Shown here piece after piece: positions 15,997 to 63,480 of a stretch of 64,000 nucleotides of DNA. The DNA lies in assembly GCF_055900595.2 (NCBI RefSeq), contig NZ_CM148325.1. One strand, 5' to 3'. A program made the translations under genes and the position numbers. The notes beneath the pieces are model-generated. The model was not told the DNA's origin, ran no database searches, and saw only the letters and a list, made by a program, of their open reading frames with translations. Position 1 is the first letter of the stretch. Every line of letters begins with the position of its first letter.

Positions 15997-16212
15997 AGAT
16001 ATTTTCTTACGGCGTTCACCTGATGTGATCTGCAGCATGTTATGCCTTCGTCATAAAATCGTTATGTAACTAAGCAACTCATCACCTCTAAAAATTATTC
16101 TTTGGTGTTATGGCGAGAATCGCGAACCCGAATTATTGTCAAAATATCAGCCTGACTCCCTTCTGGCTGCCAGCCAAAAAACAACACCGATAAACGTGAA
16201 TCCGAGGCAGAT

Positions 16213-16575
16213 ATGTTTCTAAACTATTTCGCGTTGGGAGTGCTGATCTTCGTCTTTCTGGTGATTTTTTATGTAATCATCGCGATACATGACATCCCTT
16301 ATCTGATTGCCAAAAAGCGCAATCACCCCCATGCCGACGCTATTCATACGGCGGGCTGGGTGAGCCTGTTTACTCTGCATGTTATCTGGCCGTTCCTGTG
16401 GATCTGGGCGACGCTCTATCAACCGGAGCGTGGCTGGGGTATGCAGTCACATGTTGCGTCGCAGGAGAAAGCGACTGACCCGGAAATCGCCGCACTTTCT
16501 GACCGAATTTCCCGGCTGGAGCATCAACTCGCCGCCGAGAAAAAGACTGACTATTCCACGTTCCCGGAGATCTAA
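16213..16575 (+). CDS. yibI: DUF3302-family small inner-membrane protein
   Basis: 120-aa ORF with two hydrophobic helices and a C-terminal coiled-coil tail; paralog of the ORF at 26155..26478. Confidence 0.85.
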
Positions 16576-16577
16576 AT

Positions 16578-17714
16578 ATGGATCTATTGATTGTTTTAAC
16601 TTACGTGGCGCTGGCGTGGGCGGTCTTTAAAATCTTCCGCATTCCGGTAAATCAGTGGACGCTGGCGACGGCGGCGCTGGGAGGCGTGTTTCTGGTGAGT
16701 GGTTTGATTTTGTTGATGAACTACAACCACCCTTACACTTTTACCGCACAGAAAGCGGTGATTGCTATTCCCATCACGCCACAGGTGACGGGGATCGTGA
16801 CTGAAGTCACTGACAAGAATAATCAGCTCATTCAGAAGGGCGAGGTGCTTTTTAAGCTCGACCCGGTACGTTATCAGGCGCGAGTCGACAGACTTCAGGC
16901 TGACCTGATGACGGCGACGCATAATATAAAGACACTGCGCGCGCAGCTCACTGAAGCGCAAGCCAATACCACCCAGGTTTCAGCGGAGCGTGACCGCTTG
17001 TTTAAAAATTATCAACGTTACCTGAAAGGCAGCCAAGCGGCGGTAAATCCGTTCTCAGAACGTGATATCGACGATGCGCGGCAGAATTTTCTCGCGCAGG
17101 ATGCGCTGGTGAAAGGCTCGGTGGCGGAACAGGCGCAAATCCAGAGCCAGCTCGACAGTATGGTTAACGGTGAGCAGTCGCAGATTGTCAGCTTAAGGGC
17201 GCAGCTTACCGAAGCGAAATATAACCTTGAGCAGACCGTCATTCGCGCGCCGAGCAATGGCTACGTCACTCAGGTGCTGATCCGCCCAGGTACATACGCA
17301 GCTGCCTTGCCGTTGCGTCCGGTAATGGTTTTCATCCCTGAGCAAAAACGGCAAATTGTCGCCCAATTTCGGCAAAACTCGCTGTTACGTCTGAAACCCG
17401 GCGATGATGCGGAAGTGGTGTTTAACGCGCTACCTGGGCAGGTGTTCCACGGCAAACTGACTAGTATTTTACCTGTCGTGCCAGGCGGTTCGTATCAGGC
17501 GCAAGGGGTATTGCAATCATTAACGGTCGTGCCCGGCACGGACGGTGTGCTGGGAACCATTGAACTGGACCCTAACGATGATATCGATGCTTTACCCGAC
17601 GGCATCTACGCCCAGGTGGCAGTTTACTCCGACCATTTCAGCCATGTTTCGGTGATGCGGAAGGTGCTGCTAAGAATGACCAGTTGGATGCATTATCTTT
17701 ATTTGGATCATTGA
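16578..17714 (+). CDS. yibH: HlyD-family membrane-fusion (periplasmic adaptor) protein
   Basis: 378-aa ORF with N-terminal TM helix, coiled-coil region and beta-barrel domain; starts 2 bp after yibI; paralog of yiaV. Confidence 0.85.
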
Positions 17715-17784
17715 GACTTGTATCACCTGTGTTTTGCGCGAGCCTGAGCCATACTGATATTTTTCCTCGCACAAAGGACTCGGC

Positions 17785-21912: not shown

Positions 21913-23032
21913 ATGGCAGCTTCAACCTTTTTTATTCCTTCCGTGAATGTTATCGGCGCTGATTCATTGAATGATGCAATGAATATGATGGCAGATTATG
22001 GATTTACCCGTACCTTAATTGTCACCGACAATATGTTAACGAAATTGGGTATGGCGGGTGATGTGCAAAAAGCACTGGAAGAACGCAATATTTTTAGCGT
22101 TATTTATGATGGCACCCAACCTAACCCCACCACGGAAAACGTCGCTGCAGGTTTGAAATTACTTAAAGAAAATAATTGCGATAGCGTGATTTCCTTAGGC
22201 GGTGGTTCTCCACACGACTGCGCAAAAGGTATTGCGCTGGTTGCAGCCAACGGCGGTGACATCCGCGATTATGAAGGCGTTGACCGCTCTGCAAAACCGC
22301 AGTTGCCGATGATCGCCATCAACACCACGGCGGGTACGGCATCAGAAATGACCCGTTTTTGCATCATCACCGATGAAGCACGTCACTCCGCTGCTTTCTG
22401 TCAATGACTCCTCGCTGATGATCGGTATGCCGAAGTCACTGACCGCTGCAACGGGTATGGATGCCTTAACGCACGCTATCGAAGCGTATGTGTCTATTGC
22501 CGCCACGCCGATCACCGACGCTTGCGCACTGAAAGCGGTGACTATGATTGCCGAAAACCTGCCCTTAGCCGTTGAAGATGGCAGCAATGAGAAAGCGCGC
22601 GAAGCAATGGCTTACGCTCAGTTCCTCGCGGGTATGGCGTTCAACAATGCGTCTCTGGGTTATGTTCATGCGATGGCGCACCAGTTAGGTGGTTTCTACA
22701 ATCTGCCGCACGGTGTATGTAACGCCGTTCTGCTGCCGCACGTTCAGGTATTCAACAGTAAAGTCGCTGCTGCACGTTTGCGTGACTGCGCTGCCGCGAT
22801 GGGTGTTAACGTGACAGGTAAAAACGACGCGGAAGGTGCAGAAGCCTGCATCAATGCCATCCGTGAACTGGCGAAGAAAGTGAATATCCCGGCAGGCTTG
22901 CGTGACCTGAACGTGAAAGAAGAAGATTTCGCGGTACTTGCGACCAATGCCCTGAAAGATGCCTGCGGCTTTACTAACCCGATTCAGGCAACTCACGAAG
23001 AAATTGTGGCGATTTATCGCGCGGCGATGTAA
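21913..23032 (+). pseudogene. yiaY: Iron-containing alcohol dehydrogenase YiaY, split by a frameshift near 22375-22405
   Basis: Two ORFs in different frames (21913..22407, 164 aa; 22373..23032, 219 aa) together cover one Fe-ADH; about 10 residues between ...CIITDEARH and [32 protein letters not shown] are missing relative to family members such as FucO. Confidence 0.7.
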
Positions 23033-25250: not shown

Positions 25251-25661
25251 ATGTTTTATCCCGCCTATATCCACAGTGATCCTGACGGCAGCGCCAGCGG
25301 TTTTTTCCCTGATGTTCCAGGCTGTTATTTTGCTGGTGATACGCTGGACAACGCTTTCCAGGATGCGCGAAGTGCACTGGTCGCGCACTTCGAAACCTTA
25401 TGCGAGATGAATGAAGAGTTGCCGCTTCCAGGCTCTGTGGAAACACATCTGGTCCAGCGTGCGCAGGACTTTATTGGCGGGCAATGGTTGCTGGTGGATA
25501 TCAATATGAATCAGTTCGAAGGTCGGGCTGAACGTATCAATATTACGATGCCGAAAAGATTACTGAACAAGATTGATACCTACGTGCGCAATAACCCAGA
25601 CTACGCCAACAGAAGTGCGTTTCTGGCGGAAGCTGCCCGGCGTGTATTGCCGGGCGTTTAA
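25251..25661 (+). CDS. hicB: HicB-family antitoxin with C-terminal ribbon-helix-helix DNA-binding domain (136 aa)
   Basis: Strong SD aggagg 7 nt upstream; C-terminal RHH-like segment NRSAFLAEAARRVL. Confidence 0.8.
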   Translation: MFYPAYIHSDPDGSASGFFPDVPGCYFAGDTLDNAFQDARSALVAHFETLCEMNEELPLPGSVETHLVQRAQDFIGGQWLLVDINMNQFEGRAERINITMPKRLLNKIDTYVRNNPDYANRSAFLAEAARRVLPGV

Positions 25662-26041
25662 TCTCGCGTTTCGATGGTGAGCGGGCGGACCAGGCTGTAC
25701 AGCCACAGACCAAAACAAGCGATGGTGCCAATCACCACGGTGAGGAACACACTGACTGACAGGCCTGCAAGCAATCCCGCAGGCAGGGCCAGCAGGCCGT
25801 GGATCACGGTGTCGTTCCATCTCACCTGATCGTAGCCAAACATGCCTAAAACGCCGCAAACCAGACCGTAAATCACCATTGGTGTTCCGAGGCCAATCAG
25901 CAATAAACGGTAGATAATTGAAGGTTTAATACGCTTTATCTGTACTGTGGATGTTTTACTGGGGTTATTCATTAGTTTGGTCAATAGTTCCATTATTTCA
26001 ATATGATAAACCTCGACCTGTTGAAAAGCCAGGTAGCACAC
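25658..26041 (-). CDS. Small hydrophobic membrane protein of unknown function (about 111-127 aa)
   Basis: ORF with two or three predicted TM helices; start uncertain (GTG at 26041 or ATG at 25993); 3' end overlaps the hicB stop by 4 bp. Confidence 0.45.
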   Translation of the reverse strand: MCYLAFQQVEVYHIEIMELLTKLMNNPSKTSTVQIKRIKPSIIYRLLLIGLGTPMVIYGLVCGVLGMFGYDQVRWNDTVIHGLLALPAGLLAGLSVSVFLTVVIGTIACFGLWLYSLVRPLTIETRD

Positions 26042-26154: not shown

Positions 26155-26478
26155 ATGTTCCTGGACTATTTTGCACTGGGAGTGCTTATTTTTGTATTTC
26201 TGGTGATATTCTATGGGATTATTATTTTACATGATATTCCCTACCTGATTGCTAAAAAACGTAATCATCCTCATGCCGACGCCATTCATGTTGCTGGTTG
26301 GGTGAGTCTTTTTACGCTGCATGTTATCTGGCCATTTTTGTGGATTTGGGCCACGCTTTACCGCCCGGAGCGGGGATGGGGAATGCAAAACCATGACTCC
26401 TCCGTTGTGCAACTACAACAGCGTATTGCCGGGCTGGAGAAACAGCTCGCCGACATCAAATCCTCTTCTGCCGAGTAA
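26155..26478 (+). CDS. yiaW: DUF3302-family small inner-membrane protein
   Basis: ORF 26125..26478; start taken at MFLDYFALG with SD gaggg upstream (107 aa); paralog of yibI. Confidence 0.85.
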
Positions 26479-26483
26479 TACTT

Positions 26484-27620
26484 ATGGATTTACTGATTAT
26501 TTTGACCTATGTGGCTTTCGCATGGGCAATGTTTAAGATCTTCAAAATTCCTGTAAATAAATGGACCATTCCCACCGCGGCCCTGGGTGGCATATTTATT
26601 GTCAGCGGTCTAATTCTGTTAATGAACTATAACCATCCGTATACCTTTAAAGCGCAAAAAGCGGTTATTTCTATTCCTGTTGTCCCGCAGGTGACAGGCG
26701 TGGTGATCGAAGTGACGGACAAGAAAAATACGCTGATTAAAAAAGGTGAGGTGCTATTTCGACTGGACCCGACGCGTTATCAGGCGCGGGTGGATCGGCT
26801 GATGGCGGATATCGTTACCGCAGAACATAAACAGCGGGCGTTGGGCGCAGAGTTAGATGAGATGGCGGCGAATACTCAGCAGGCAAAGGCCACGCGGGAT
26901 AAATTCGCTAAAGAGTACCAGCGTTACGCACGCGGCAGCCAGGCGAAAGTAAACCCGTTTTCAGAACGCGATATTGATGTGGCGCGGCAAAATTATCTGG
27001 CGCAGGAAGCCTCCGTAAAGTCATCGGCGGCGGAACAAAAACAGATCCAGAGCCAGCTGGATAGCCTGGTGTTGGGTGAACATTCTCAAATCGCCAGCCT
27101 GAAAGCGCAGCTCGCGGAAGCAAAATATAACCTTGAGCAGACGATAGTGCGTGCGCCGAGCGATGGTTATGTGACCCAAGTGCTGATTCGTCCGGGTACC
27201 TATGCCGCATCGCTGCCGCTACGTCCTGTGATGGTGTTTATACCCGATCAGAAACGACAAATTGTGGCGCAGTTCCGTCAGAACTCCTTGCTGCGACTGG
27301 CTCCCGGCGATGATGCGGAAGTGGTGTTTAATGCTCTGCCAGGTAAGGTATTCAGCGGTAAGCTGGCAGCCATTAGCCCAGCTGTTCCCGGCGGAGCTTA
27401 TCAGTCGACCGGCACCTTACAGACGTTAAACACAGCACCGGGTTCAGATGGCGTTATCGCGACCATTGAACTGGATGAGCACACTGAGTTGAGCGCTTTA
27501 CCAGACGGTATTTACGCCCAGGTGGCGGTTTACTCTGATCATTTCAGCCATGTCTCGGTGATGCGCAAAGTGCTGTTACGCATGACCAGTTGGGTGCATT
27601 ACCTTTATCTCGATCATTAA
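26484..27620 (+). CDS. yiaV: HlyD-family membrane-fusion protein
   Basis: 378-aa ORF; paralog of yibH; starts 5 bp after yiaW. Confidence 0.85.
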
Positions 27621-29469: not shown

Positions 29470-29600
29470 TCGGTGCGGCTGGCCTACGCTCTCGCACTGA
29501 CCTTCAGGCTTGATAAGACGCGTTAAGCGTCGCATCAGGCAATGTGCACCCTACGTTGGATGCGGCGCGAGCGCCTTATCCAACCTACGGATGGCAATGC
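29470..29600. repeat. REP element pair between yiaT and the GH127 gene
   Basis: gcctacgctctcgcactgaccttcaggcttgataagacgcgttaagcgtcgcatcaggca ... ggatgcggcgcgagcgccttatccaacctacgg. Confidence 0.7.
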
Positions 29601-43759: not shown

Positions 43760-43860
43760 GCCGGATGCGGCTTAAACGCCTTATCCGGCCTACAAATTAT
43801 TCCAAATTCAATATATTGCAGAAATGATGTAGGCCTGATAAGCGTAGCGCATCAGGCAAT
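43760..43860. repeat. REP element pair between ysaA and avtA
   Basis: gccggatgcggcttaaacgccttatccggcctaca ... tgtaggcctgataagcgtagcgcatcaggca. Confidence 0.8.
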
Positions 43861-62447: not shown

Positions 62448-62725
62448 TCGCTAAATAATAGAGCAACCTTTAATAATCTTCTGCTGAATAAAGATTGTCT
62501 CATATATTAATTTTATGAGATTTTTTTAGGATTATATCAAGGAGAAGAAACGAACTTATTAAACTAGAATAGCTGCGGGTGCTTGAGACTGTTTGTCTCA
62601 GGTATTCACCGAAAGGCAGACAGAGAAAAGCCCCACCTGACTATAAATCAAAGTGAGGCTACCCTATGCCTGAACACCATAAGGTTAGCCTCTTACTCGT
62701 TGGAAATCAACACAGGAGGCTGGGA

Positions 62726-62878
62726 ATGCCGCAGAAATATAGATTACTTTCTTTAATAGTGATTTGTTGCACGCTTTTATTTTTCACCTGGATGATAAGA
62801 GATTCACTGTGTGAATTGCATATTAAACAGGGGAGTTATGAGCTGGCGGCATTTTTAGCCTGCAATTTGAAAGAGTAA
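62726..62878 (+). CDS. hokA: Hok-family small membrane toxin (50 aa); in-frame upstream extension from 62666 corresponds to mokA
   Basis: MPQKYRLLSLIVICCTLLFFTWMIRDSLCELHIKQGSYELAAFLACNLKE is a typical Hok toxin; SD aggagg at 62714..62719; the 70-aa ORF from 62666 is the Mok-type overlapping frame. Confidence 0.8.
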   Translation: MPQKYRLLSLIVICCTLLFFTWMIRDSLCELHIKQGSYELAAFLACNLKE

Positions 62879-63003: not shown

Positions 63004-63040
63004 AACAAATAAAAAAATCCCCGCCAAATGGCAGGGATCT
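63004..63040 (-). terminator. Intrinsic terminator of cspA
   Basis: Minus-strand hairpin (atccctgcc/ggcggggat) followed by a long U-run. Confidence 0.75.
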
Positions 63041-63065
63041 TAGATTCTGTGCTTTTAAGCAGAGA

Positions 63066-63278
63066 TTACAGGCTGGTTACGTTACCAGCTGCCGGGCCTT
63101 TAGCGCCGCTTTCGATGGTGAAGGACACTTTCTGACCTTCGTCCAGAGATTTGTAACCATCGTTCTGGATAGCAGAGAAGTGTACGAACACGTCTTTAGA
63201 GCCATCGTCAGGAGTGATGAAGCCGAAGCCTTTGTCAGCGTTGAACCATTTTACGATACCAGTCATTTTACCGGACAT
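63066..63278 (-). CDS. cspA: Major cold-shock protein CspA
   Basis: 70-aa [73 protein letters not shown]. Confidence 0.97.
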
Positions 63279-63480
63279 AGTGTATTACCTTTAATAATTA
63301 AGTGTGCCTTTCGGCGATATGGCGTGCTTTACAGATTTTGAAGCGTTAAAGGAATGTGCACTACGAGGGGTATCAACGATAACTCTTGAAGGGACTTGCC
63401 TTACTACACTGCTTTAATGGTCTGTACGTCAAACCGTTGATGTGCATTAAGCCACGCATTGGCGGGTGATGCAACAATTA
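63279..63480 (-). promoter_or_regulatory. cspA long 5' UTR (about 160 nt, cold-box region) and promoter with AT-rich UP element
   Basis: Minus-strand sequence ttgcat(-35)...cttaat(-10)...acggtttgacgtacagaccattaaagcagtgtagtaaggcaag... matches the cspA leader as recalled. Confidence 0.8.

Follow-up and report, generated by a model that had tools for sequence, protein, structure and literature searches.

Among the closest described relatives of the system considered here, AaeXAB carries out p-hydroxybenzoate efflux and consists of a small DUF1656 protein (AaeX), the adaptor AaeA and the FUSC pump AaeB, with MdtNOP and YdhIJK as related systems, and in the MFS-type tripartite pump EmrAB-TolC the adaptor is EmrA. 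As a rule, the gene for an adaptor of this family stands next to the gene for its pump. Here we compare with these systems the gene pair yibI-yibH (yibIH), which occupies positions 16,213 to 17,714 of a stretch of 64,000 nucleotides from contig NZ_CM148325.1 of RefSeq assembly GCF_055900595.2; this whole 64-kb stretch, one strand read 5' to 3', is called the window below. Our preferred reading, to which we give a probability of about 0.45, is that YibI and YibH form a self-contained, inner-membrane-anchored, EmrA-like assembly. Because the pair travels together across Proteobacteria without a linked pump, the real inner-membrane partner of YibH is probably YibI and not a transporter that was lost or is encoded far away.

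The genes, their annotation and the orphan status of the adaptor were already known. Both are known E. coli y-genes, and both are listed as uncharacterised in a 2024 y-ome survey (PMC11551758), in agreement with an earlier note on this window, written from the letters alone, which had called their function unknown. What the present analysis adds is the strict linkage of a DUF3302 gene to an adaptor gene, the lack of a linked pump across proteobacterial classes, the lack of any relation to AaeX and an inverted conservation pattern. Together these points define a distinct variant of adaptor-based systems.

Gene order and linkage of the pair

The two genes of the pair are as follows.

16213..16575, + strand: yibI, an ATG open reading frame (ORF) of 120 amino acids coding for a DUF3302 inner-membrane protein; RefSeq names the same ORF yibI
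16578..17714, + strand: yibH, an ATG ORF of 378 amino acids coding for an EmrA-like periplasmic adaptor; named yibH, HlyD family secretion protein, in RefSeq

The ORFs, the Pfam matches and RefSeq agree on the gene identities and on the lengths of 120 and 378 residues given in the earlier note. The 2-bp junction it described is also borne out, with the yibI stop codon TAA at 16573-16575, the letters AT at 16576-16577 and the yibH ATG at 16578. Of 5426 complete E. coli genomes, 5383 (99%) contain at least 80% of the yibIH stretch, which makes it a core operon, and this presence, combined with the RefSeq annotation, shows that the two ORFs are genuine genes that did not arise by chance. The window is Escherichia DNA, and over the yibIH stretch its identity to complete E. 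coli genomes does not exceed 98.7%.

The upstream neighbour of yibI is the divergently transcribed phosphotransferase-system gene mtlA, 536 bp away, and the downstream neighbour of yibH is yibF (coding for a glutathione S-transferase), on the same strand after a gap of 70 bp (17715-17784). No exporter gene in the window adjoins either yibIH or its paralogue yiaW-yiaV (yiaWV), and a tblastn search with AaeB over the whole 64 kb gave no AaeB/FUSC homologue, so that the earlier statement that no pump adjoins the pair holds. No Rhs element separates yibH from yibF here. This directly adjoining arrangement occurs in 1523 of the 5426 complete E. coli genomes, and the K-12 order has been given as yibF-rhsA-...-yibH (PMC11551758).

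The strongest evidence for a self-contained pair comes from its linkage in other genomes. We collected about 85 loci in all from gamma- and alphaproteobacteria; 74 distinct loci come from a one-genome-per-species collection, 2 from metagenomes and 7 from annotated plasmids or chromids. In every locus with continuing sequence (76 when counted on the contigs of that collection, both metagenome loci and six of the seven plasmid or chromid loci) the next gene after the DUF3302 gene on the same strand codes for a YibH homologue, at a distance of -4 to +16 nt. Where this seems not to hold, the contig ends or, in one case, IS4 interrupts the adaptor gene. Three very divergent DUF3302 proteins are encoded on contigs shorter than 1.4 kb, which gave no gene context. 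In the interrupted case, a Salinivibrio kushneri plasmid (locus L084, 7309-9700), an IS4 transposase gene lies right after the DUF3302 gene and an adaptor-like coding sequence, apparently interrupted, resumes beyond it. The loci come from Enterobacterales, Alcanivorax, Shewanella, Pseudomonas, Aeromonas, Ferrimonas, Pseudoalteromonas and Salinivibrio, in the alphaproteobacterial genera Rhizobium, Agrobacterium, Sinorhizobium and Phyllobacterium, and in several metagenome-assembled genomes.

A Pfam census of two genes on each side of the pair in 28 non-redundant loci gave no recurrent exporter family; the flanks recur only as enterobacterial synteny (mtlA/mtlD, yibF, selA) and otherwise vary by lineage. 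By tblastn, none of the roughly 85 pairs has an AaeB/FUSC homologue at a distance of up to about 10 kb (less at contig ends), and clustering of the proteins with at least seven predicted helices encoded in the loci gave no recurrent multi-helix membrane protein beyond synteny. Recurrences of GltS-like and YbjL/YidE-like proteins were considered as linked transporters and rejected, as they reflect synteny or differently placed genes. Judged by this gene order, the two-gene layout is the universal state of the family, a complete conserved unit and not a remnant.

Some neighbouring genes are recorded here in their own right. Three loci of one Rhizobiaceae-like lineage have a SulP gene immediately downstream of the pair or close to it (L068, 11596-13305; L090, 7600-9300; L072, 3779-5542), and in the Sinorhizobium locus L090 the SulP gene is followed by ppk2 and a gene for an AI-2E family transporter. 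A gene for a DUF3313 (PF11769) lipoprotein of about 220 amino acids is found beside the pair, in varied arrangements, in six loci (L045, L059, L063, L064, L065 and L073). Elsewhere, in Pseudomonas, DUF3313 adjoins genes for a FadL-like outer-membrane protein or PqiABC, and PqiB-like genes adjoin the pair in Pantoea. The DUF3313 lipoprotein was rejected as an obligate third component, since it sits with other genes elsewhere and is absent from the window; its adjacency is a weak lead that may hint at a hydrophobic-compound or envelope theme.

Domain composition and conservation of YibI and YibH

YibI matches a sole Pfam family, DUF3302 (PF11742; E=1e-40), over residues 3-78 and 76 of the 77 model positions, and among 1.84 billion proteins the family accounts for 841 clusters (50% identity). 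By hydropathy, residues 7-25 form a strong segment; a second segment, rich in Trp (about 46-68), stays under the threshold in YibI and passes it in the paralogue YiaW (46-64). A low-confidence AlphaFold2 (AF2) model of YibI has helices at 2-35, 41-68 and 90-112. The predictions thus fit a protein of two membrane helices (about 7-25 and 46-68) with a helical tail. The two helices are joined by a family-conserved loop containing RNHPH, and eleven residues (P29, A33, H38, P39, A43, W49, S51, L52, W59, P60 and W65) are invariant across 15 diverse homologues. The C-terminal tail varies in sequence and length across the family, yet a short heptad-like helix is nearly always present. In a search of the PDB, the DUF3302 profile (alignment positions 17-65) weakly matched two helices of 6k6k, the rhodopsin chloride pump of Mastigocladopsis repens (E=6.5e-4, 23 bits); the match probably reflects membrane-helix composition and not homology.

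YibH matches the Pfam families CusB_dom_1, HlyD_D23 and Biotin_lipoyl_2. The generic NCBIfam adaptor model RND_mfp is passed (99.9 bits, cutoff 94.9), whereas the models of the characterised subfamilies are all below cutoff: EmrA/EmrK (TIGR00998; 113.5 bits against 390.8), MdtN (110.9 against 376), AaeA (75.1 against 400) and the EmrA model PRK15136 (57.1 against 563). Since the generic model alone passes its cutoff, YibH is, by its profile scores, a member of the adaptor superfamily (HlyD/AcrA/EmrA fold) that stands nearest to the EmrA/MdtN/AaeA group and outside every characterised subfamily. The closest PDB sequence is EmrA (8zar, E=1.7e-11), and a Foldseek search with the AF2 model of YibH gave EmrA of EmrAB-TolC as the best match (8zar and 8zal; E=8e-19, template-modelling score 0.65-0.69), with further matches to Aquifex EmrA (4tko), MacA and AcrA/MexA.

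In this model the periplasmic part has a predicted local distance difference test (pLDDT) score of 80-95. It contains a lipoyl domain, a long alpha-hairpin at about 97-218 (helices 97-152, 161-196 and 202-218), a beta-barrel and a C-terminal helix at about 355-374, with no membrane-proximal domain. The N-terminal helices of the model (1-19 and 26-50) coincide with two hydropathy segments (2-20 and 29-47) and are predicted to be membrane helices. No Pfam match covers the N-terminal 60 residues, and the EmrA and AaeA alignments start only at residue 52-54 of YibH, past both hydrophobic segments. By eye, the hairpin tip of the long-hairpin homologues resembles that of EmrA and AaeA (Y-x-R, a loop, then S/G-x-E/D-I/L-D/E-x-x-R/Q). 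A role in anti-phage defence was considered and rejected, PADLOC having given only coiled-coil noise (E about 0.005).

Identity is distributed unevenly along YibH. Comparison of the E. coli protein with 11 distant homologues gave the following regional values.

Two membrane helices, loop and NYNHPY motif: 66% identity
C-terminal helix: 59% identity
Lipoyl domain, C-terminal half: 58% identity
Beta-barrel: 42% identity
Lipoyl domain, N-terminal half: 38% identity
Hairpin: 26% identity, length 60-127 residues

The small protein is the more conserved of the two, YibI being 58-66% identical and YibH 42-46% identical in the same distant genomes. The membrane anchor of ordinary adaptors is their least constrained part. 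Here the membrane-embedded parts of YibI and YibH are under the strongest constraint, a pattern unusual for an adaptor and the one expected if the two proteins form a specific mutual complex that is central to their function.

Control region, expression and phenotypes

The signals read from the sequence around the pair are listed below.

16204..16207, + strand: Shine-Dalgarno sequence GAGG of yibI, 5 nt upstream of the ATG
16566..16569, + strand: Shine-Dalgarno sequence GGAG of yibH, within the last yibI codons
15677..16212, no strand: mtlA-yibI divergent spacer of 536 bp, with the presumed yibIH promoter and several CRP-like TGTGA..TCACA palindromes

The position of the yibH Shine-Dalgarno sequence inside the 3' end of yibI suggests translational coupling, and yibIH is thus predicted to be a translationally coupled two-gene operon for an obligate pair of proteins. 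A consensus scan of the sequence found no strong or convincing yibI promoter, and a scan found no terminator between yibH and yibF. Genomic systematic evolution of ligands by exponential enrichment (SELEX) placed a sigma-70 promoter of yibIH in the yibI-mtlA spacer, and the same study lists both yibIH and yiaWV as operons (PMC3946193). The CRP-like palindromes of the common spacer include TGTGATCTGAATCACA and TGTGAGTAATGTCACA. Because of these palindromes, cAMP-CRP may control the divergent yibIH promoter as well as mtlA, and such sites fit the published induction of yibH and yiaW together with mtlA and aldB at the growth-phase transition of E. coli O157:H7 in glucose minimal medium (PMC2241611).

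In uropathogenic E. coli, growth in urine raises the expression of both genes of the pair, yibI and yibH, and deletion of yibI gave a competitive index of 0.33 in urine and reduced adherence to bladder cells (PMC5404293). Deletion of yibH in K. pneumoniae led to fewer plaques by evolved phages (PMC11796411). For the paralogue, a yiaW deletion reportedly raises Ca2+ transformation efficiency, as cited in PMC12844161, and a yiaW insertion was without effect on phagosome maturation (PMC5495878). The neighbour of yiaV codes for the LysR regulator YiaU (LpsR/CsuR), which controls yiaT and lipopolysaccharide (LPS) core genes and is tied to cell-surface properties (PMC9068703); according to a paper citing Shimada (2022), YiaU/CsuR is required for uncharacterised membrane proteins that affect biofilm formation and sensitivity to complement and antibiotics. 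No link of yibH or yiaV with TolC or EmrA was found in the literature searched. The published phenotypes of yibIH and yiaWV are mild and come from one study each. Expression goes up on exhaustion of glucose and in urine. Taken together, the expression and phenotype data suggest a function at the envelope or surface that is expressed conditionally, and not classic drug efflux.

The paralogous pair yiaW-yiaV

A second pair of the same type is present in the window.

26155..26478, + strand: yiaW, coding for a DUF3302 protein of 107 amino acids, 73% identical to YibI; RefSeq yiaW
26484..27620, + strand: yiaV, coding for a protein of 378 amino acids, 77% identical to YibH without gaps; starts 5 nt past yiaW

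The start of yiaW lies 9,942 bp downstream of that of yibI on the same strand, as expected from the earlier note, which had placed an almost identical module about 10 kb away in the same orientation; distance and orientation are right, and "almost identical" is too strong for proteins that are 73% and 77% identical. The two pairs share the two-gene architecture, the 378-residue adaptor, 73-77% identity, the listing as operons and induction at the growth-phase transition in glucose minimal medium. Unlike yibIH, yiaWV is bound by H-NS and adjoins yiaT and the LysR regulator gene yiaU/csuR, and the tail of YiaW is 13 residues shorter than that of YibI. The H-NS binding at yiaWV comes from a published study (PMC3946193). 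yiaV (+ strand) and yiaU (- strand) are convergent, and their 3' ends overlap by 4 nt (27617-27620). yiaWV is complete in 3769 of the 5426 complete E. coli genomes (69%), against 99% for yibIH; yibIH is the core pair and yiaWV the accessory pair.

Proposed assembly and alternative explanations

If YibI and YibH do form a self-contained assembly, its outline may be drawn by analogy with the hexameric EmrA. Six YibH molecules would make a tube in the periplasm, and its base would be a ring of about 24 membrane helices to which each YibH and each YibI would contribute two. The conserved His/Asp-rich loop of YibI and the YibH loop FK-x-F-x-IP-x-N-x-WT are Lys/Arg-rich and, by the positive-inside rule, would face the cytoplasm. 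The tail of YibI and the C-terminal helix of YibH would lie at the periplasmic face, where they could stand in for the membrane-proximal domain that YibH lacks. In enterobacteria the hairpin, 122 residues long, could reach and dock onto an outer-membrane duct such as TolC. The outcome would be a conduit that works without a pump or is driven by protons, or else a gate for a substrate from the periplasm or the membrane.

A bolder form of this proposal is that DUF3302 and the two-helix-anchored EmrA-like adaptor constitute a distinct pump-less, envelope-spanning machine, in which the 24-helix (YibI-YibH)6 ring is itself the inner-membrane translocator or gate, perhaps under the control of protons or metals by way of the invariant His/Asp cluster, and exports or exchanges a periplasmic or membrane substrate without an MFS, RND, ABC or FUSC protein. 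We regard this form as unlikely. If true, it would be a fifth architecture for adaptor-based systems, present within a core E. coli operon. Should the adaptor work with only a two-helix DUF3302 partner, it would be an exception to the rule that every periplasmic adaptor serves a pump of its own, and E. coli, the best genetic model organism, would offer a new type of envelope conduit for study.

Several points weigh against a self-contained assembly. To our knowledge, all characterised adaptors of the YibH fold work with a dedicated transporter, and a pump-less system is without precedent. No energy-coupling domain is evident in YibI or YibH. An AF2 model of YibI fused to YibH through a 30-residue Gly/Ser linker, built with 22 genome-paired alignment rows, gave a pLDDT of only 50-60 for the YibI part. 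The hairpin is very short (60-88 residues) in some homologues (Pseudomonas, Ferrimonas and Aeromonas), which makes TolC docking doubtful as a universal mechanism. The sampled loci are almost all from Proteobacteria, and mostly from Enterobacterales. A SulP anion transporter gene stands directly beside the pair in one Rhizobiaceae-like lineage, and it is the sole transporter gene found directly adjoining the pair. Lastly, tolC is unlinked to most E. coli pumps, and absence of linkage therefore leaves room for an unlinked partner.

This last point leads to the alternative that survives best, namely that YibH is an orphan adaptor with a distant pump and, with YibI as an AcrZ- or AaeX-like accessory, serves an unlinked exporter with exit through TolC, as a classical tripartite efflux pump whose genes are scattered. 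The earlier note had suggested a distant pump or an envelope stress system, but the conservation pattern leans towards a self-contained pair. The candidate pumps are presumably an unpartnered DHA2-type MFS protein or the FUSC-like proteins YccS and YhfK, which we take to be orphans. The fold of YibH and its nearest relatives (EmrA/EmrK, MdtN and AaeA) are all pump-associated, the hairpin tip resembles that of EmrA and AaeA in the long-hairpin homologues, and both small accessory membrane proteins and unlinked components such as tolC are familiar in E. coli. We nevertheless consider a distant pump somewhat unlikely. Adaptors of this family normally have their pumps encoded next to them, and no recurrent linked exporter appeared in about 30 independent contexts from two proteobacterial classes. 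Within the pair, conservation is highest in the small protein and in the membrane helices of the adaptor, which is unusual for a mere anchor and an accessory, and the literature search described above gave no link of yibH or yiaV to TolC or EmrA.

Another alternative assigns the pair an envelope role that involves no transport: YibI and YibH would be an inner-membrane-anchored periplasmic scaffold or sensor for envelope integrity or the cell surface, moving no substrate. In a variant of this idea the pair might act with outer-membrane lipoproteins or lipid-trafficking systems, in line with the DUF3313 lipoprotein gene beside the pair in six loci and the PqiB-like genes adjoining it in Pantoea, but DUF3313 is no dedicated partner, being found elsewhere with FadL-like or PqiABC genes and absent from the window. 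The phenotypes are surface-related (adhesion, urine fitness, phage plaques, transformation) rather than related to drug resistance, and the neighbouring regulator YiaU/CsuR is tied to cell-surface properties (PMC9068703), but these phenotypes are mild and single-study. The lack of conservation in hairpin length speaks for such a role, but YibH keeps, with high model confidence, the full lipoyl, hairpin and barrel architecture of the tube-forming adaptors. Overall, we judge a role without transport to be improbable.

That the pair is a degenerate aaeXAB-type remnant, now drifting after loss of the FUSC gene, is effectively refuted: it has in its favour only a likeness of layout (a small membrane-protein gene, then an adaptor gene) and the 25% identity of YibH to AaeA (E=2e-16), while neither YibI nor the YibH N terminus is related to AaeX, 99% of E. 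coli genomes carry the pair intact, its strong conservation extends across classes and includes invariant residues, FUSC genes are absent from the surroundings of every family member, and YibH scores 75 bits on the NCBIfam AaeA model against a cutoff of 400.

With the self-contained assembly as the preferred reading, the unit for study is the pair, and both paralogous pairs should be taken together; a hunt for the missing pump alone may prove to have no object. The pair may matter for host colonisation, as published links to urine fitness, adhesion and phage plating suggest, on data that are thin.

Other features of the window

Between yibIH and yiaWV, comparison with E. coli NZ_CP098223.1 shows that the L-threonine dehydrogenase gene yiaY (21913-23032, + strand) has lost 32 bp between 22384 and 22385. 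The deletion splits yiaY into two overlapping ORFs (21913..22407 and 22373..23032), so that this strain probably carries the gene as a pseudogene. Between aldB and yiaW lie a hicB-like antitoxin ORF (25251..25661, + strand) and, on the opposite strand, a membrane-like ORF of 127 amino acids (25658..26041); reference genome annotation at the position corresponding to 25251-26041 gives hicA/hicB and a hypothetical protein. Four Rfam matches in the window score above the gathering score.

62577-62728, + strand: sok antitoxin RNA
63011-63438, - strand: cspA thermoregulator
29507-29585, - strand: naRNA4
43794-43836, + strand: ES036 small RNA

Comparison with known adaptor systems

Small inner-membrane proteins that, like YibI, are encoded with or act on an efflux assembly include AcrZ (with AcrB) and proteins of the YajC type. 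AcrZ binds the pump AcrB and is dispensable for assembly, and its gene is not strictly linked to the adaptor gene. YibI differs from AcrZ in being more conserved than its adaptor and in having its gene always directly upstream of the adaptor gene.

With EmrA (8zar and 8zal; Aquifex 4tko) YibH has in common the lipoyl domain, the long alpha-hairpin and the beta-barrel, the lack of a membrane-proximal domain and anchoring by N-terminal membrane helices and not by lipid. Unlike EmrA, YibH has two N-terminal membrane helices instead of one, which are highly conserved, and a conserved C-terminal helix. The gene context differs as well: yibH never adjoins an emrB-like MFS gene, and a DUF3302 gene always precedes it.

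The likeness to aaeXAB is one of layout, both loci having a gene for a small two-helix membrane protein followed by a tightly spaced adaptor gene. AaeA and YibH both belong to the broad EmrA/MdtN/AaeA group and are 25% identical (E=2e-16), whereas AaeA has one membrane helix, a much shorter hairpin and 310 amino acids in total. The small proteins are unrelated. With an AaeX query 100% identical to the annotated aaeX product, BLASTP gave no similarity between YibI and AaeX (DUF1656, PF07869) and profile-profile alignment with hhalign gave a probability of 0.1%; no similarity of the YibH N terminus to AaeX was found either. Nor does a FUSC gene occur in the window or near any of the pairs. The earlier note had described the locus as resembling the first two genes of aaeXAB and lacking the third; the resemblance of gene layout stands, and the notion of a lacking third gene does not, given that YibI and AaeX are unrelated and that no FUSC gene lies near about 85 pairs. 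For the same two reasons, yibIH is a separate two-gene family and not aaeXAB minus its third gene.

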